A DNA stretch of 53,425 nucleotides from sequence record ON470612; one strand, given 5' to 3'. This DNA comes from Escherichia phage vB_EcoS-640R1. Position numbers and translations under genes: made by a program. The notes under the pieces are model-generated. The model searched no databases and was not told where the DNA came from. It worked only from the letters and a program-made list of their open reading frames with translations. Numbering within the stretch: position 1 is the first letter of the stretch; the number at the start of each line of letters is the position of its first letter. Shown here piece after piece: positions 4,558 through 36,031 of the stretch.

Positions 4558-7806
<3,249 letters not shown>

Positions 7807-14446: not shown

Positions 14447-16888
14447 TTAAAAATCAGCCTGACTCGGGATCAGTTTTTGCCAGATAACTGAAACGTATTT
14501 TGCCTGGTAACGGGCGTCATCAAGTGCATTATGGCGCTCACCTTCGAATGGAATAGCCGTTCTGGCATCGAAGTCTATGGCTTTCCCCAGCTCAACGATT
14601 GTGCGTACATCGCGATCGTTGTAGTAACGCCACGGGCAGGGGATCCCCTGCCGTTCGTATGAACGGCGCAAAATCGTGTTGTCGAAGTTGGCTCCATTTC
14701 CCCAGACCTGAACAAAAAATTCACCGGAGTTTTCGTCGATAAATTCCCGCAATTGTAACAGTGCATCATCTAACGGGATTTCATCGGTCATAATGGCAGA
14801 TTGCGCTTCGCGTGATTGCTTAAGCCACCATTTAATGGTGTCCCGATCAATGACTCCGCCAGCAGTTTCCAGATCGATAGTCTTACTAAATTCCGGTCCC
14901 ATATCTCCGGTTTGCGGATCGAAAAATATTGCACCTATTGAGATGATCGGGGCATCAGGATTTTTTCCCATGGTTTCAAGGTCGATCATTAGATGGTCAC
15001 ACGTCCTGCTGGTGGATGTGATTTCTTGATGACCGTTCACCTTAATTGAGTGATCTGCCGTCTCGCCAGTTTCATTATCGCTATCGTGATGCTGATTGCC
15101 GCCAGTGTTCTCCTTGTGTGGATGTTCAGCGCCTTCCATTTCCTCCGGATCATCTTCCTGAACTTCAACCTGATACTCTTCATCGAATGTTTCCTGGTAT
15201 GTTGCGTCGCCCATCACCGCGCCACAATCAGGGCAGTTGCCGCCGCCGGTCTGACCGCAGGCGGTGCAGACTTTTTCCACTTCCTGTTGCGCCACTGGTT
15301 CGGATTGTTTCGTTTCTGGCTCGTTTTGTAACGCATTTGGGCTGTTTTGTTCCGCTTTTTGGTCGTTCCGTTCCGATTCATGCTGGTTCTGGTTCACAGA
15401 ATCGCGAGTCTGGATCCCTTTGACCCATTTCGGATCATTAGGGTCGCTAATCCCCTCAACAAATTCACCACGCGATACAGCAAGTAACTTATCGGCGTCA
15501 GGCTGGCTGATATTGGCTGCCTGCATAATTTTGTTTACTTCGTCAGCGGTGACTTTTACTTGGTTAGCGGAACTCACCTGCGACTGAGCATCCAGCGACT
15601 GCGCGTTCTGGCCATGTTCAGTTGTATCCGGTTCCATTGTTTCAGTTGTTGCCTGTTCACCTGCCATTGCGTCAGATGGTTGTGGTTTTTCTTCTTCTGT
15701 TTCACGCTCAGTAACCACCTCGCGGTTAATTTCTTCCAGGATATCTTTTTCCGGCGTATGCCGGGCAGCTGTGAGAGTTTCCTTGCTGGGGTTCTCGTGA
15801 TCAGTTTCCGTCAAATAGGCGTTGATATACCCCTGAAGGCGTCCCGGGTAGTGATAAAATTCAGGGTGTGCGCTTCGGATAAGTGCAAAAATAGCGGCGC
15901 GGGAATAGTCCAGAATACCCGGGGTTGCACGAAGTGCTGCGGACCATTCTTTGAACGGACTTTCTTTGTTCAGGACTACTTCTTTTGCGCGACGATAAAC
16001 GCTGCCCGGAATTTCATAAATATTAAAATCCATCGGAAGTGTGGCTGCTGCAATCTCCACATCCAGTGTGTCGAGGGTGTGTACTAAATTCGGATTGCGA
16101 TCGGTTTTGTTCCCACCGCCAGCATTAGCACCGGAAGCCGTGCGGGTGATGCGTGAAACACGATTTCCTTTCATCCACTCTTTTGTCAGCAGACCCCGAT
16201 CAGTGTAGTCAGCGTCTAGGTATGCTTCGAAAAAAGCAGTTATTAGTCCCAGGTCTGAATTACCAGGATTAGGGAAAACTTTGTCAGTGTCACGAACCAG
16301 TTTGTGGAGGTCGCGAATCTCCAGCGAGTCGAGCAGACTGGTTTTATGCGAAATAGCCAGGGCAGTAACAGCCGGTAGTTCTTCAGCCCGTGCAATGTGT
16401 AATGCCTGGAGTTCGTCGCGTGAAACGTGCGTTACTGGTTTTTCGCTGCCGTGTTGAGCAAGCCAACGAATGGGCAGTTCCTGACCGGAGACAGGCAGAA
16501 GCATGCTCTCCTCAATCTCAGTCATGGCTTCGCCGTTGATGTTGGTATTGTCAGTGCTGGCTGGTTTGTCCTGAACAGAGGGGGAAGGGCCGATAAATGT
16601 CATTGTGATGCCATCTTTCCCGCCTTTTTCATAGCGGTTGCAGAATTCAGTATCAAACACGCCTTCTGGCGGAAGGTCGTCAACAACGGGCAAATTGACG
16701 CGGACGGGTTTTTTAAAGTCGTCTTCATCATAATCGTTGTCATCCATTGCGGTAATGCAGCGGGAGATTGCAACAGATAATTTTTTTGCTGTAGTCCAGT
16801 AAAAACCACCTTTAATTCCTAGGCGTTTTCTTACTTTGTCATTTTTTGCTTCGCAATATAGTGCAAATTCTTCTTTATCAGTGCTCAT
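14447..16888 (-). CDS. Phage exonuclease, 813 aa, C-terminal DEDD-type 3'-5' exonuclease domain (the class often annotated exodeoxyribonuclease VIII-like)
   Basis: C-terminal ~190 aa carry DnaQ-like motifs (MIDLETMG..., HNALDDARY); centre is a long acidic low-complexity linker with a CTACG...CPDCG zinc-ribbon-like motif. Confidence 0.7.
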
Positions 16889-16981
16889 TATTGGTAAACC
16901 TCATCACAGATTTAAGGGTGAACAAATCTCTGCCATTGCTGACATATAAGAATGAAACTGGATATTTATTACGGTGCTGTT

Positions 16982-17173
16982 TTAAAATCCTGCCGGGATT
17001 TCGTTATTATCCTGGTGAATAACTTTATCGACCGGATAACAGTTGCCTGGAATTTTCTGTTCGGTTGCTGCTGCCATACATTCCTGCATTGTTCTGTGAA
17101 CACTGACTGCAATATCAACTGGCTCTCCGGAAACAAGAAAAACCGTCAGAATAAGTGCAAATACTGGATTCAT
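16982..17173 (-). CDS. Hypothetical small early-left protein with hydrophobic N-terminus
   Basis: MNPVFALILTVFLVSGEPV...; start placed at internal Met of track ORF 16982..17227. Confidence 0.4.
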   Translation of the reverse strand: MNPVFALILTVFLVSGEPVDIAVSVHRTMQECMAAATEQKIPGNCYPVDKVIHQDNNEIPAGF

Positions 17174-17358
17174 TGTGCACATCCTTTTGGCATCAGACGT
17201 AAACGGGCCAGCATTGAAACAATGCATACTTTATTTAATAACTCCCGTTCGTGTTTTCTTTTGTTAATGGCATCTTCAGTAAATACAGGATTACTGATAG
17301 TGACACCAATTTCAAAACAACCTTCAGACGTATTAACGTTTGGTAATAACGTTTTCAT
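17170..17358 (-). CDS. Hypothetical small early-left protein
   Basis: MKTLLPNVNTSEG... with GAGGG Shine-Dalgarno upstream; within track ORF 17170..17463. Confidence 0.4.
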   Translation of the reverse strand: MKTLLPNVNTSEGCFEIGVTISNPVFTEDAINKRKHERELLNKVCIVSMLARLRLMPKGCAQ

Positions 17359-17926
17359 TATCGCGCCCTCAACAATGAGTTTTGTGATGCGGTGCCTGGT
17401 GCCTCCAGGTGACGTTAACCAGTTAACAATTAACGCCGGATACAGAGAATCCACCCATAACACTGTTTTTGGTTTTAACTGTTCCGCGTGCGCTTAGCCG
17501 CATTCACCGCATCACAAAATTCACTTTAAAAAGGGCGGCAGAGCAGTCACGGAGTAAAACTGATACCGCCAAACGTCACCAGAAAATTGATAACAGAGGG
17601 CGTTGCAGTGGGGTTGTCACTTAAGCGTATGGTCAACCTGACAACCCGGTGTCCTCAACGGGGGAAGGAATAACCCCGCCATACTTACCGCCGCGCCATT
17701 TCGCGGATTGCCACAACCGGAAGCGCACGGTCGACGAAAATTTAACGACAGGCTATCTATGAACCAGCTACCTCGCCGTGCGCTTTCGCGTTATGGCCTG
17801 ACTTTTCAGGGAAATATCCTTTCAGTAAACTGTCAGTGCCGGATGCTCACCCGTGTCCGGCGCACGCACTCCACCTCACCCGTGGAGAACTCCTTAATTA
17901 CCAACCTTAGCTTCGTTGGTTATCTA

Positions 17927-23378: not shown

Positions 23379-23637
23379 ATACAGCGAACGCCATTGGTTT
23401 AGTTGGATATTTACTGTGCCGGACAAAAACGGTTTGCGGGGAAATCTTAGTTAAGTAGAATGACTGCGGGTGCTTGAGGCTATCTGTCTCAGGCATGAAC
23501 ACCAAAAGGCAGATAGAGAAAAGCCCCAGTTAACATTACGCGTCCTGCAAGACGCTTAACATTAATCTGAGGCTCAATCTATGAACGGCAAATCTAGGTT
23601 AGCCTCTTACGTGCCGAAAGGCAAGGAGAAGCAGGCT

Positions 23638-23793
23638 ATGAAGCAGCAAAAGGCGATGTTAATCGCCCTGATCGTCATCTGTTTAACCGTCATTGTGACG
23701 GCACTGGTAACGAGGAAAGACCTCTGCGAGGTACGAATCCGAACCGGCCAGACGGAGGTCGCTGTCTTCACAGCTTACGAACCTGAGGAGTAA
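23638..23793 (+). CDS. hokD: Hok/Gef-family type I toxin (HokD/RelF-like)
   Basis: MKQQKAMLIALIVICLTVIVTALVTRKDLCEVRIRTGQTEVAVFTAYEPEE: single TM plus conserved Cys/Tyr periplasmic tail typical of Hok; in-frame upstream extension from 23581; terminator downstream. Confidence 0.85.
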   Translation: MKQQKAMLIALIVICLTVIVTALVTRKDLCEVRIRTGQTEVAVFTAYEPEE

Positions 23794-26540: not shown

Positions 26541-26578
26541 AATGGGCTTTTTATGCCTGACGTTAGAAGAGTTTCTAC

Positions 26579-26603
26579 AACCCGCCGCCGAGCGGGTTTT
26601 TTA
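26579..26603 (+). terminator. tR'-like intrinsic terminator
   Basis: CCCGCCGCCGAGCGGG hairpin followed by TTTTTTATT. Confidence 0.6.
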
Positions 26604-26641
26604 TTGCGGAATTAATTACGGACCGTTATTATTCTACTCCC

Positions 26642-26717
26642 GGCCCTTTAGCTCAGTGGTGAGAGCGAGCGACTCATAATCGCCAGGTCGCTGGTTCAAA
26701 TCCAGCAAGGGCCACCA
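26642..26717 (+). tRNA. tRNA with CAU anticodon (Met/Ile2-type, ileZ-like phage tRNA)
   Basis: 76 nt cloverleaf: 7-bp acceptor GGCCCTT/AAGGGCC, D-arm GCTC-AGTGGTGA-GAGC, anticodon loop CTCATAA, T-arm GCTGG-TTCAAAT-CCAGC, 3' CCA. Confidence 0.85.
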
Positions 26718-26815
26718 TCACAAACCGCCATTAGCTTATCAGGAAGAGCAGACGACACGATAACAGGGTTGTTGGTGCGGGGGCGGGTCCCCGATGGCGG
26801 TCCATTATCGGTATT

Positions 26816-26895
26816 CAGCGTTGTTAGCTCAGCCGGGCAGAGCAATTGCCTTCTAAGCAGCTGTGGTTGCACTCCTGTTGTTTCTGGTGGTGATG
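26816..26895 (+). pseudogene. Degenerate tRNA-Arg(UCU)-like remnant
   Basis: TTAGCTCAG...AGAGCAA...CCTTCTAAG matches the 5' half of argU-type tRNA, but the T-arm and acceptor 3' strand are not foldable. Confidence 0.4.
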
Positions 26896-27054
26896 GTGGA
26901 CTTCAGCAGCCGGATAATGTCGGTGCTGTCTGATGGTGTTTTGGTGGCGGGTGTGTGGTTGTTGCTTTCCCGTTGCTGAAAAAGAAAGCATCAGGCGATT
27001 AGCAGGGTATCAGTTACCCGTTGAAATTTTTAAATACCTCACAATTCCACAGCT

Positions 27055-27258
27055 TGATGATTGTCTGGCTGCCGGAGAATTTGTTAAAAATTACATCGCA
27101 TGGTGAATCCCCCTCAGCGGCGGGGCATCTGGCAAAGTGTATGATCCAGAGAACATGCAAATTCAGTAGACAGGCTGAATTTACCGGGAGGCCCCTGGCA
27201 CCATGCGACAGACAGAAATTAGGCTATACTTCAGCCCCTCTCCGGAGGGGCTTTTCTG
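27055..27258 (+). ncRNA. Candidate structured RNA element, copy 1, ends in intrinsic terminator
   Basis: Shares conserved blocks with copy 2 (TTGTCTGGC..TTTGTTAAAAA..CGCATGGTGAATCCCCCT; GAATT(T/C)ACCGGGAGGC..GGCACCATGC; AGCCCCTCTCCGGAGGGGCT + T-run); alternative pairings of GCATGGTGAAT with ATT(T/C)ACC or CACCATG. Confidence 0.4.
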
Positions 27259-27445
27259 TGCAGGATGTGTCACAGTTTCCTGAATTCTGAGTACTGTCCT
27301 GTTACTCAGGGTGCTATATTTTCTGACGTGATGAAAGTCTGCCGGAAGGCGGAACGTATCGGAAATGACCCAGTAGAGAAAACGTTGACTCAGATACCGA
27401 TGCTGAGTTACCGGGAAACCGGCATCACATGACCGCTATCCTTCC

Positions 27446-27475
27446 AGGCTCGCTCCGGCGGGCCTTTTTACTGCA
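27446..27475 (+). terminator. Intrinsic terminator between the two RNA-like elements
   Basis: AGGCTCGC-TCCG-GCGGGCCT hairpin (one G-U) followed by TTTTTA. Confidence 0.45.
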
Positions 27476-27525
27476 GAAAACAGTTTTCCCGTAAAATGCC
27501 ACGTTGCTCATAATTCAGGCTGGCG

Positions 27526-27720
27526 ATTATTGTCTGGCCGGCGGGAAGTTTGTTAAAAAATTTCGCATGGTGAATCCCCCTGTGCGGAGGGGTAATCAGC
27601 GAGTAGGTATATGGGATAATCGCGGATTCAGGTGCTGGTACTGAATTCACCGGGAGGCACCCGGCACCATGCAATGGCACATAGCGCCACTCTCCAGCCC
27701 CTCTCCGGAGGGGCTGTTTA
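27526..27720 (+). ncRNA. Candidate structured RNA element, copy 2, ends in terminator-like hairpin
   Basis: Same conserved 5', 3' and hairpin blocks as copy 1, with a divergent central segment. Confidence 0.4.
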
Positions 27721-27750
27721 TATTGATTTTGTCAGATGTGAGTAAACTCC

Positions 27751-28086
27751 TTATGGACTTTGTTGTTTTAGTCCATAAGGACATATTTGCAGAATGCAAC
27801 GGTTATTAAAGCATTCATTCAATACGTTATCTGTATTTGTAGGGCATTCCTGGCTGTTTTTGATTAAATTCCAGAATGTTTTATTGAATGGTACTACGTT
27901 GTAAATGGTTACAGGTAGCACTTTGTTATTGAGCATGATACCTGTGTGAGTCAGTGTAAATATACTTTCAGGAGGTAAGAAAGCATCCGATTGATACCAG
28001 ATTATTAATTTTACTTTACTCCATATGACTGAAAAAGATATTCCGCATGATGGCTGGATAACTGTATCAATTACAATCCACTTCAT
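27751..28086 (-). CDS. Hypothetical 111-aa protein in AT-rich moron island (the slot where Stx phages carry stxAB)
   Basis: Track ORF with AAGGAAG Shine-Dalgarno 4 nt before ATG; surrounded by markedly AT-rich DNA (27720-28330); no recognisable family. Confidence 0.5.
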
Positions 28087-28346
28087 TTAGCTTCCTTGTT
28101 TATGCCTTGCTGGTGATGTTCTGAAAAGTATAAATGATATTTTTGAATATAAACCATAGAGCAGAATTATTTTTCTGATGTTGTTTATTGTTTATTTAAA
28201 TGCAGGGTGGTTTATATCTCGTCTTGTAGTTTATCCATGCATATCTGCTTGATGATCAGGTTTCTATTTAAGGTATGGTTTTGTGTTTTTTCTGTGTTAC
28301 ATGTCTGGTATTTTAAAGAATTATTTTTCAGATGGTGGAAAGAACC

Positions 28347-28535
28347 ATGGCATTTAAACACTATGATGTTGTCAGGGCGGCGCCGCCGTCAGATCTTGCG
28401 GAAAAGCTGACACATAAACTGAAAGAGGGCTGGCAGCCGTTTGGTAGTCCGGTGGCCATAACCCCTTATACCCTGATGCAGGCGATTGCAGCAGAAGGTG
28501 ATGTGGTGGTCAGTGGTGCAACTGAGCCGGAGTGA
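28347..28535 (+). CDS. DUF1737-like small protein, commonly found just upstream of lambdoid lysis cassettes
   Basis: MAFKHYDVVRAAPPSDLAEKLTHKLKEGWQPFGSPVAITPYTLMQAIAAEGDVVVSG...; internal start of track ORF 28332..28535. Confidence 0.65.
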   Translation: MAFKHYDVVRAAPPSDLAEKLTHKLKEGWQPFGSPVAITPYTLMQAIAAEGDVVVSGATEPE

Positions 28536-28691
28536 TACTACGTCATCGTACTGGCCCGGCATTCCAGACCATAAAAGACGGTCTGGCAGTGGGACTAAAT
28601 GCACTGACGCTGACGGATATTACCAAAAATGCAACGTATGGCGTTGAGATAGAAAGTCTGGTGCTGGAGATAAATACACCGGCATCATCAT
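28532..28691 (+). CDS. Possible small ORF (53 aa, GTG start) below ORF-track cutoff
   Basis: Protein-like translation (...[37 protein letters not shown]) in a frame overlapping the preceding stop; weak RBS. Confidence 0.25.
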
Positions 28692-28842
28692 AAAAAGTGA
28701 GCCAGTCAAATGGAAGGTATCGTTAAACTCACCGGTAGTGTCAGTGGATCGTCTGAGACGCTTGCATGAGTTATCAGAGCCATCAGTAGTTAACTGGTGG
28801 CTTTTTTATTGTTGTCAGCTTCCGGATAACGGGAGACGGGGT

Positions 28843-29058
28843 ATGGACCAGATGGAAAAAATCACAACAGGTGTGTCATACACCACGTCAGCGGTGGGAA
28901 CGGGCTACTGGTTCCTGCAGTTGCTGGACAGGGTTTCCCCGTCTCAGTGGGCGGCAATAGGCGTGCTGGGGAGTCTGCTGTTTGGGCTGCTGACATATCT
29001 GACTAACCTGTATTTCAAAATCAGAGAGGACCGTCGTAAGGCGGCACGGGGAGAGTAA
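28843..29058 (+). CDS. Pinholin, phage 21 S-type, with dual-start motif
   Basis: [71 protein letters not shown]: two TM helices, Met1/Met4 dual start, charged C-tail; track ORF extends upstream from a GTG. Confidence 0.85.
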
Positions 29059-29062
29059 TTCA

Positions 29063-29413
29063 ATGACTCAAAACTATGAACTGATTGTGAAAGGGATCCG
29101 CAATTTTGAGAATAAAGTTACGGTAACTTTAGCGTTACGGGACAAAAAACGCTTTGACGGTGAAATTTTTGACCTGGACATCTCGCTGGACCGTGTTGAA
29201 GGTGCCGCGCTGGAGTTTTATGAGGCAGCAGCCAGAATGAGTATCAGACAGGTCTTCCTGGATGTTGCTGCCGGGTTATGTGAAGGGGATGAGCAGTCGC
29301 CGGAAAAGCGCCCCGTAATTTTAGAGGCGCAGAATGTATGGATAACCTACAAAGGAAAGCTACCGGGAAGAATTACTGGTTCTCTGAAGACTCCTCCGGA
29401 ATCACAACCTTAA
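29063..29413 (+). CDS. Hypothetical 116-aa protein inserted between holin and endolysin
   Basis: ATG after GGGGAGAG; occupies the whole S-R interval; no recognised family. Confidence 0.5.
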   Translation: MTQNYELIVKGIRNFENKVTVTLALRDKKRFDGEIFDLDISLDRVEGAALEFYEAAARMSIRQVFLDVAAGLCEGDEQSPEKRPVILEAQNVWITYKGKLPGRITGSLKTPPESQP

Positions 29414-30499: not shown

Positions 30500-30793
30500 T
30501 TATTGTGAGCAATACACACGCGCTTCCAGTGGAGTATAAATGCCTAAAGTAATAAAACCGAGAAATCCATTTACGAATGTTTGCTGGGTTTCTGTTTTAA
30601 CAACATTTTCTGCGCCGCCACAAATTTTGGCTGCATCAACAGTTTTCTCCTGTCCAATTCCCGAAACGAAGAAATGATGGGTGATGGTTTCCTTTGGTGT
30701 TACTGCTGTCGGTTTGTTTCCAACAGTAAACGTCTGTTGAGCACATCCTGTAATAAGCATTGCCAGAGCGGCAGAAAACAACATTTTTTTCAT
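30500..30793 (-). CDS. bor: Bor-like serum-resistance lipoprotein
   Basis: MKKMLFSAALAMLITGCAQQTFTVGNKPTAVTPKETITHHFFVSGIGQEKTVDAAKICGGAENVVKTETQQTF... near-identical to lambda Bor; start at internal Met of track ORF. Confidence 0.88.
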   Translation of the reverse strand: MKKMLFSAALAMLITGCAQQTFTVGNKPTAVTPKETITHHFFVSGIGQEKTVDAAKICGGAENVVKTETQQTFVNGFLGFITLGIYTPLEARVYCSQ

Positions 30794-34210: not shown

Positions 34211-35426
34211 TGCTCTGTTTCGCAGTGAGTCTCTGGAAAATCCCTCGGTTCCGGTAACCGGAGAGGCCGCTGAGACGGATAATATTTTTGCCCGGGATGT
34301 GTATGTCAGTCCGGAAACATCCATGAAGCTGGCTGCTGTCTATGCCTGTATTTATGTTATTTCATCCAGTGTGGCTCAGATGCCCCTGCATGTGATGCGA
34401 AAAACGAATGAGCATGTTCAGCCTGCACGCGATCATCCGTTGTTCTGGCTCGTTCATGATGAACCTAATGCCTGGCAGACCAGCTATAAGTGGCGGGAAC
34501 TGAAGCAGCGTCATGTGCTGGGGTGGGGCAATGGTTATACGTGGGTAAAACGTAATCGTCGTGGAGAGGTTACCAGCCTTGAATGCTGTATGCCATGGGA
34601 AACCACGTTACTTAACACCGGTGGGCGTCATACTTACGGGGTGTATAACGAAGAGGGTGCATTTGCGGTAAGTCCGGACGACATGATCCATATCAGGGCG
34701 CTGGGAAACAATCAGAAAATGGGACTGAGCCCGATCATGCAGCATGCTGAAACCATTGGTATGGGAATGAGTGGCCAGCAGTATACCAGCGCCTTTTTTA
34801 ACGGTAATGCCCGTCCTGCCGGTATTATTTCTGTGAAAAATGAACTGAACGAACAGAGCTGGGGCAGGCTTAAAAATATGTGGCAGCGGGCGGTGACAGC
34901 GCTTCGCAGCCAGGAAAATAAAACCATGCTGTTGCCTGCGCAACTGGATTACCGCGCTCTGACAGTTTCTCCGGTGGATGCTCAGATCATTGATATGACC
35001 AAGCTGAACAGGTCGATGATTGCAGGGATTTTTAATGTCCCGGCGCACATGATTAATGACCTGGAAAAAGCCACATTTTCGAATATTACGCAGCAGGCGA
35101 TTCAGTTTGTTCGCTACACGATGATGCCCTGGGTTGCGAACTGGGAGCAGGAGCTTAACCGTCGCCTGTTTACCCGTACAGAACGGGCTGCCGGGTATTA
35201 CGTTCGTTTTAACCTCACGGGGTTGCTCCGTGGGACCCCACAGGAGCGTGCGCAGTTCTATCACTTTGCCATTACAGATGGCTGGATGAGTCGGAATGAA
35301 GCCAGGGCATTTGAGGATATGAACCCGGTTGACGGTCTGGATGAAATGCTGGTCAGCGTAAATGCAGCAAATCCGTTGAATAACTTTAAAGATACGAAAG
35401 GCAAAGAGGAAAAGAACGATGAATGA
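34200..35426 (+). CDS. Portal protein (HK97 family)
   Basis: 408-aa ORF; GAGGAG RBS; position between terL and prohead protease. Confidence 0.88.
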   Translation: MLLDALFRSESLENPSVPVTGEAAETDNIFARDVYVSPETSMKLAAVYACIYVISSSVAQMPLHVMRKTNEHVQPARDHPLFWLVHDEPNAWQTSYKWRELKQRHVLGWGNGYTWVKRNRRGEVTSLECCMPWETTLLNTGGRHTYGVYNEEGAFAVSPDDMIHIRALGNNQKMGLSPIMQHAETIGMGMSGQQYTSAFFNGNARPAGIISVKNELNEQSWGRLKNMWQRAVTALRSQENKTMLLPAQLDYRALTVSPVDAQIIDMTKLNRSMIAGIFNVPAHMINDLEKATFSNITQQAIQFVRYTMMPWVANWEQELNRRLFTRTERAAGYYVRFNLTGLLRGTPQERAQFYHFAITDGWMSRNEARAFEDMNPVDGLDEMLVSVNAANPLNNFKDTKGKEEKNDE

Positions 35427-36017
35427 CCGTGAAACGCGCTGTTACAGCGGGGAGGTGCGGGCGGAACAATATGATAATGCCCGACCCACATTCTGGGGTA
35501 TGGCTCGGTATTTAACAGTCGTTCAGAACCTCTGTGGGGATTTCGTGAAATCATCAAGCCGGGGGCTTTTGATGATGTACTGAATGATGATGTACGTGGC
35601 TTGTTTAATCATGATCCTAATTTCATTCTCGGACGAAGTTCTGCCGGCACATTGTCATTGTCGGTGGATGAACGCGGTTTACGTTATGACATTGTTGCAC
35701 CGGATACTCCGACTATTTGTGACCTGGTGCTGTCTCCAATGTTGCGTGGTGACATTAACCAGTCCTCGTTCGCGTTTCGTGTCGCCCGTGACGGAGAGAG
35801 CTGGTATGAAGACGACGAGGGGATTGTTATCCGGGAAATCACGCGCATTTCTCGTCTGTATGACGTCAGCCCGGTGACATATCCGGCCTATCAGGACGCA
35901 GACTCCGGTGTCCGCTCAATGAAAGCCTGGCAGGAAGCGCGGGCGAGTGGTGCGCTGAAGAAAGCTGTTAATGAACGAATGGCGCGTGAGCGCCTTTTGA
36001 CCCTTCTTAATGCATAA
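35419..36017 (+). CDS. Prohead protease (HK97 family), interrupted by an apparent -1 frameshift at a G4 run (35495-35498)
   Basis: N-terminal 26 codons (MNDRETRCYSGEVRAEQYDNARPTFW) from ATG 35419 after AGAGGA; family-like sequence continues in the other frame (GYGSVFNSRSEPLWGFREIIKPGAFDDVL...NHDPNFILGR...), which is the track ORF 35601..36017. Confidence 0.7.
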
Positions 36018-36031
36018 GGATACTACTGACG

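Follow-up and report, generated by a model that had tools for sequence, protein, structure and literature searches.

The sharply AT-rich island between the Q antiterminator gene and the lysis genes of Escherichia phage vB_EcoS-640R1 (record ON470612; by "the window" we mean this whole stretch of DNA, 53,425 nucleotides) is almost certainly, judged from its sequence, the iraL cassette of a lambdoid prophage lying beside potC, and would encode an RssB-binding anti-adaptor that stabilises RpoS. Work on uropathogenic E. coli had already characterised the gene in 2014, which makes the finding a real but ordinary one. Its value is one of annotation: an AT-rich moron that looked like an orphan, between Q and the lysis genes of a prophage on the potC side, can be named iraL. 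The window itself offers no new biology. Only side observations point forward: a paralogue adjacent to stx2B, a cysteine-rich C-terminal tail and a PhoP-like promoter element.

The features of the locus are:

Upstream of the tRNA: Q antiterminator gene (PF03589).
26575-26605: terminator-like hairpin with a T-run, after Q (sequence and repeat scan).
26642-26717: tRNA with anticodon CAU, the only intact tRNA (Ile according to PGAP, Met according to ARAGORN).
About 26725-26860: two tRNA-Arg remnants, one scrambled and one truncated (comparison with CFT073 and the O157 Stx2c prophage).
27537..27725, plus strand: STnc100 sRNA, copy 2 (Rfam RF02076, 132.5 bits, gathering score 47).
27748..27781, minus strand: 12-bp hairpin over the iraL stop codon, a structure at the 3' end of the mRNA with no U-tract after it (RNA fold).
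27751..28086, minus strand: iraL coding sequence, 111 aa (ORF list, NF007393, 8TWD, identity to CFT073, dN/dS).
28088..28119, minus strand: predicted iraL 5' UTR including the AAGGAAG ribosome-binding site, with a putative start at 28119 (homology to the CFT073 5'-RACE).
28120..28346, minus strand: AT-rich iraL promoter and divergent intergenic region (239/249 nt to the CFT073 upstream region).
About 28332/28347..28693, plus strand: nanS-p-type remnant in two pieces, the right flank and divergent partner of iraL.
Downstream of the island: DUF1737 (PF08410), P21-type holin and phage lysozyme (Pfam scan).

Identity of the 111-aa protein

On its sequence the 111-aa protein is IraL, a prophage-borne RssB anti-adaptor of the IraM/IraL family. 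A sequence-only reading of the same DNA had placed it in no family that it recognised, but it is a plain member of this one. Specifically, the NCBIfam model NF007393, "anti-adapter protein IraM" (PRK09919), matches it end to end (residues 1-110 of 111 on profile positions 1-113 of 114) with 162 bits against a curated cutoff of 121, and the solved IraM chain 8TWD_A is matched without gaps at E = 8.7e-32 over residues 1-78, the crystallised RssB-binding domain, with 51 of the 78 positions identical. The closest characterised protein is IraL of uropathogenic E. coli CFT073, formerly ycgW and described on the "potB genomic island" (Hryckowian 2014, mBio, PMC4045071). The two proteins agree at 109/111 residues, the substitutions being V25I and I98T, and the first 107 codons of the genes differ at 4 nt. 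The orphan look of the reading frame probably arises because Pfam has no model for IraM/IraL and PHROGs files the protein as phrog_4407, "unknown function". The Pfam search that had been proposed for it indeed returned no family, which leaves membership unaffected given the missing model; the identity came from NF007393 and 8TWD instead.

Hryckowian et al. take as iraL a gene whose entire coding region is at least 95% identical to CFT073 iraL and whose upstream region is at least 96% identical to that of CFT073 (PMC4045071), and the subtype is further marked by a prophage or island at potB/potC. Besides the near-identical protein, the 249 nt upstream of the ATG in the window are 96% identical to those of CFT073 iraL (239/249), and the mapped start sequence is present with two mismatches. 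The site can be judged from record M217, in which the island and its flanks (27650-28400, a 751-bp query) are 100% identical to those of the window and a prophage integrase and excisionase adjoin potC, as they do in CFT073. Because gene, promoter and prophage site all match, we take the window locus to be the published iraL locus. The agreement extends to the neighbourhood: positions 27508-29402 are 97.4% identical to CFT073, and the order is the same in both, namely Q, tRNAs, DUF3927, iraL on the minus strand, a truncated DUF1737 gene, holin, YdfR and lysozyme. The prophages differ elsewhere, the window having a P27-type small terminase and an HK97-type head whereas CFT073 has lambda-type terminase, portal and head-decoration genes, with an IS200 and three intact tRNAs upstream. 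We also note that the HK97-family prohead protease gene is frameshifted according to PGAP in M217 (about 35423-36021 in the window, mapped from M217), and because of this frameshift the window prophage may be unable to form heads.

The transcription start of CFT073 iraL was mapped by 5'-RACE, and a sigma-70 promoter was proposed (PMC4045071). The 32-mer from that experiment matches 30 of 32 bases at 28088-28119 on the minus strand, which is its sole match in the window (chance expectation 0), and iraL transcription would accordingly begin at 28119. The gene thus has its own promoter in the spacer, in keeping with the independent expression that had been proposed for it. A putative -10 element is TATACT, the complement of 28127-28132; this is our reading of the sequence and not a program prediction, and the iraL promoter was missed by a generic sigma-70 scan. 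Relative to CFT073 there are two base differences in the spacer of the ribosome-binding site and one change each at -1 and close to the -35 region, so the expression level of iraL could differ from that in CFT073. At the other end of the gene, the fold of 27690-27800 on the minus strand has a minimum free energy of -39.4 kcal/mol (z = -5.96 versus shuffles), which includes the STnc100 terminator hairpin read in reverse; this convergent terminator lies some 25 nt beyond the hairpin over the iraL stop codon.

Two further features of the spacer are worth recording. A 21-nt direct repeat, AGAATTATTTTTC(T/A)GATG(T/G)TG, has its two copies at 28163-28183 and 28317-28337, a distance of 154 bp; the former lies 44-64 nt upstream of the predicted iraL start, and the latter immediately precedes the nanS-p remnant. 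In CFT073, loss of fur increases IraL (PMC7157518), but the sequence does not support direct control of iraL by Fur: the best match in the promoter is 11/19 to the 19-bp consensus, below the shuffle mean of 11.7.

It is very improbable that the gene is IraM proper, the PhoP-dependent K-12 anti-adaptor of Mg2+ starvation, and not the IraL subtype. PGAP and NCBIfam do both use the name "IraM", and 63-79 nt upstream of the predicted start, at 28182-28198 on the strand opposite to iraL, stands a PhoP-box-like direct repeat, TGTTTATTGTTTATTTA (TGTTTA-TTGTT-TATTTA). With 1 mismatch it is the only site in the 53 kb with at most one; it is identical in CFT073, and its position is kept, as CGTTTA-TTCTT-TGTTTA, in the promoter of the paralogue carried by the O157:H7 Stx2c prophage (the O157 paralogue). 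However, shuffling the 260-bp AT-rich region yields an equally good site in about 5% of cases, and for this reason the repeat is a candidate site that we regard as only a lead; moreover, the same scan finds no PhoP-like site upstream of K-12 iraM itself. The protein shares 67/111 residues (60%) with K-12 IraM against 109/111 with IraL. By blastn the K-12 similarity ends at the coding sequence, so the promoters of iraL and K-12 iraM are unrelated, which is in line with the different reported regulation of the two genes: Mg2+ starvation induces IraM, which contacts both domains of RssB (PMC4045071, PMC10844676), whereas IraL acts in log phase and contacts the RssB N-terminal domain only (PMC4045071). 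The context differs as well, being beside e14/icdC in K-12, where the neighbouring ycgX is a DUF1398 gene in surroundings unrelated to the window locus, and in a potC-side prophage here. Identity, promoter and context together rule out a K-12-type coding sequence with a K-12-type (PhoP-dependent) upstream region.

The identification as IraL leaves still less room for the first reading's suspicion that the moron encodes a new toxin or a new factor of anti-phage defence. Moron position, opposite strand and atypical composition would suit such a gene, as would a PHROG (4407) that carries no function, but the protein is fully explained by a family for which a complex has been solved and a genetic phenotype described, and since it matches 0 PADLOC-DB families at E up to 1 we reject the defence reading.

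Predicted action on RpoS

For CFT073 IraL the activity is known. [quoted passage not shown] Because of the 98% identity we carry RssB binding, RpoS stabilisation and the start site over to the window, and expect the same RssB-binding, RpoS-stabilising activity in the window strain. IraL would thus bind RssB, the response-regulator-like adaptor that hands sigma-S (RpoS) to ClpXP, and would occlude the sigma-S-binding face of RssB, so that RpoS would not be degraded. A lysogen would then keep RpoS and RpoS-dependent stress resistance raised even in exponential growth.

In the crystal structure of IraM with RssB, the anti-adaptor uses three clusters of residues to cover the RssB 4-5-5 face, which sigma-S requires (PMC10844676). 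K-12 IraM (b1160; PDB 8TWD, in complex with RssB) is homologous to the window protein over its full length and its gene has a similarly low GC content (about 0.34); Cys14, Phe18, Trp30, Ile61, Tyr62 and the four C-terminal cysteines of IraM are also present in the window protein. Of the RssB-contact residues, 10/14 are identical to IraM. The identical residues comprise all five of cluster I, which faces the RssB N-terminal domain; three of five in cluster II, which contacts the C-terminal domain (changes T13S and L75I); and two of four in cluster III, which contacts the linker (changes H63N and I64V). This pattern, with cluster I whole and clusters II and III partial, fits the reported interaction of IraL with the N-terminal domain only, and the fully conserved cluster-I residues probably contact that domain of RssB.

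Because of the 65% identity to the solved chain 8TWD, the N-terminal domain of the window protein is predicted to be a PmrD-like beta-barrel, PmrD being the only other fold in the PDB like the IraM N-terminal beta-barrel (PMC10844676). PmrD (PDB 4HN7), the connector of PmrA, is small and like IraM binds a partner of the response-regulator type, but its target and outcome differ from those of IraL, and the search that found 8TWD gave no sequence match between PmrD and the window protein. RssC of Salmonella belongs to the same iraL-iraM-rssC family (PMC4045071), though it is distant in sequence from IraL.

Outside the crystallised domain, Cys81, Cys92, Cys97 and Cys102 (IraL residues 81-111, at 27751-27846) are invariant in IraL, IraM and the O157 paralogue. 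They form part of a C-terminal motif, CP...C....C....CP[YF]GL, and the cysteine pattern persists even in a Salmonella fragment with 35% identity. The C-terminal tail of IraM was left out of the crystallised construct.

Transcription of iraL would run leftwards out of the AT-rich spacer, where the gene has its own promoter, and would be antisense to the Q-dependent late transcript. Since iraL lies antisense within that transcript, prophage induction should oppose its expression; read-through of the late operon after induction would do so, although this step is pure inference. The antisense placement may in this way couple RpoS stabilisation to the lysogenic state. In a wider and rather unlikely form of the idea, the phage-borne genes of the IraM family would respond to further inputs in addition to such a coupling. 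One such input may be the PhoP-box-like repeat, found at the same promoter position in iraL and the Stx2c-phage paralogue; another could be the four C-terminal cysteines, acting as a metal- or redox-sensing knuckle. If true, the uncharacterised paralogue 3' of stx2B would tie carriage of Stx2c phages to a rewiring of the general stress response in O157:H7.

The AT-rich island and its neighbours

The composition of the island is extreme for the window. The 611-bp stretch 27720-28330 has a GC content of 0.321 against a mean of 0.507 (sd 0.047) for segments of that length, z = -4.0, and no other 611-bp segment is as low; 27717-28343 is the lowest-GC stretch of about 600 bp in the whole window (0.32). 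In 200-bp steps the GC content falls to 0.285-0.36 at about 27700-28300, with both flanks at about 0.45-0.55. Comparison with the related phage phi296, which lacks the island, places its edges at about 27717 and about 28343, so that 27720-28330, where the sequence-only reading had put it, is correct to some 15 bp. In place of the island phi296 has a 232-bp segment of 50% GC between the sRNA terminator and nanS-p. Next to the island, the lowest GC content in the window is that of a patch at about 16700-17400, which coincides with dicB and ydfD in the early region.

As that reading had also stated, the island holds a single ORF of more than 70 aa, an intact frame of 111 aa at 27751..28086 on the minus strand, antisense to the late operon, with an ATG start and an AAGGAAG ribosome-binding site 4 nt upstream of it. 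Its view of the ORF as a horizontally acquired cargo gene, or moron, is borne out. AT-rich DNA, poor in GC-rich codons, can hold long chance ORFs, and the flanking nanS-p and tRNA-Arg sequences are decayed, but a spurious frame in filler DNA or the remnant of an IS is hardly conceivable here, given a dN/dS of 0.10-0.25 against three homologues at a dS of 1.1-2.0 between paralogues (iraL, iraM and the O157 paralogue), which shows constraint on the protein, a reading frame that is present and intact, by annotation, in over 1,400 complete E. coli genomes, an orthologue backed by genetics and biochemistry, and an island with no transposase ORF and no terminal inverted repeats or target-site duplication bracketing it. 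Inverted repeats at the island are limited to the STnc100 terminators and, upstream, one short AT-rich pair.

The gene is common in the species. A megablast search with the island and its flanks found matches in 2,225 of 5,426 complete E. coli genomes, with at least 80% of the query covered in 1,427, and in every RefSeq genome the match is annotated "anti-adapter protein IraM" and stands next to a truncated DUF1737 gene. With the coding sequence alone as query, the best hit has at least 90% nucleotide identity, the iraL-type allele, in 1,442 E. coli records; iraL is carried by about 1,440 of the 5,426 genomes. In another 3,333 records the best hit is 60-80% identical, most of them near 71%, which is the K-12 iraM type, with a smaller group at 77% from O157:H7.

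The surrounding layout was largely as first described. Q, the terminator-like hairpin, the tRNA(CAU), the tRNA-Arg remnants, the holin and the lysozyme are all in place; the DUF1737 gene, however, is not intact. It is the N-terminal piece (28347-28535) of a nanS-p remnant whose C-terminal end is a 53-aa ORF at 28532-28693. Of the 634 positions of profile phrog_143 (NanS-p-type), one ORF matches 1-58 and the other 582-632, and because they match its two ends we read them as a sialate-esterase gene, nanS-p, that has lost about 520 internal codons. The deletion is common to CFT073, PGAP flags the remnant as incomplete, and the DUF1737 N-terminus can be aligned with phi296 NanS and with the DUF6645 protein in the O157 prophage. 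Among the tRNA-Arg remnants, the first (TCG) is scrambled in the D and anticodon arms and the second (TCT) breaks off right behind the anticodon loop.

On the left, the terminator of the second STnc100 copy (27695-27716) forms the border of the island and converges on iraL. The STnc100 copies are arranged in tandem between the tRNA remnants and iraL, at 27068-27261, 27297-27472 and 27537-27725; two are full (138 and 132 bits) and one is degenerate (30 bits, less than the gathering score), and all three have a GC-rich terminator hairpin at their end. A 38-aa ORF at 26863-26979 on the plus strand, at the place where Stx phages have stxAB, is called DUF3927 by PGAP and matches phrog_1470, [quoted passage not shown], at E = 2e-13. 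Elsewhere in the window, a second opposite-strand moron, the iss (bor-like) "increased serum survival" lipoprotein gene, follows Rz/Rz1 at 30500-30793 on the minus strand with a GC content of 0.37-0.42, and the early region holds the DicF sRNA (17533-17584, minus strand) and a hokD/sok toxin-antitoxin locus (23468-23643, plus strand).

Relatives of the module in Stx phages

The sequence-only reading had seen in the island the slot in which Stx-converting phages carry stxAB. The Q-to-lysis region is right, but in Stx2c-type phages stx2AB lies upstream of the iraM-like module and the two are present together. The slot proper, at about 26860-27540, holds the tRNA-Arg remnants, the 38-aa DUF3927/TciB-like ORF and STnc100 sRNA copies in the window; the iraL module is not the occupant of the stxAB position between the tRNAs and the sRNA/nanS-p, and Stx2c phages carry both. 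In the O157:H7 Stx2c prophage, Q is followed by three tRNAs, stx2A, stx2cB, an STnc100-like element, the iraM-like gene on the minus strand and nanS-p, in this order. Because this paralogue lies directly 3' of stx2B, the module accompanies stx and is not an alternative to it.

Positions 27549-28402 of the window align as a whole with the O157:H7 module at 68% nucleotide identity, in the same orientation and order: STnc100-like element, gene on the minus strand, AT-rich spacer, nanS-p on the plus strand. The Stx2-phage paralogue (for example in phages 2851 and 1717, and WP_001303568 in O157:H7) is 72-74% identical to IraL and has the same pattern of RssB-contact residues. It differs in its length of 107 aa, two extra cysteines, a GC content of 0.41, an intact nanS-p next to it and its place directly downstream of stx2B. 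The literature that we searched contained no functional study of this paralogue.

Comparison of the same slot across related prophages, which had been suggested at the outset, gave a clear distribution. The gene is absent from phi296 and from most Stx2a phages (the 933W-like type), which have 232 bp of ordinary composition instead, and the paralogue is present in Stx2c-type prophages. A protein search of phage records found the family in 45, three of them identical to the window protein. Stx2-converting phages account for 41 of the 45, most of them named Stx2c-converting and the rest Stx2-, Stx2a- or Stx2k-converting; the remaining record is the Salmonella fragment with 35% identity, deposited as a phage and flagged as unverified. 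The gene at 6003-6326 of the O157:H7 Stx2c prophage forms a third clade beside IraM and IraL, and in most phage records it is unannotated or called "hypothetical".
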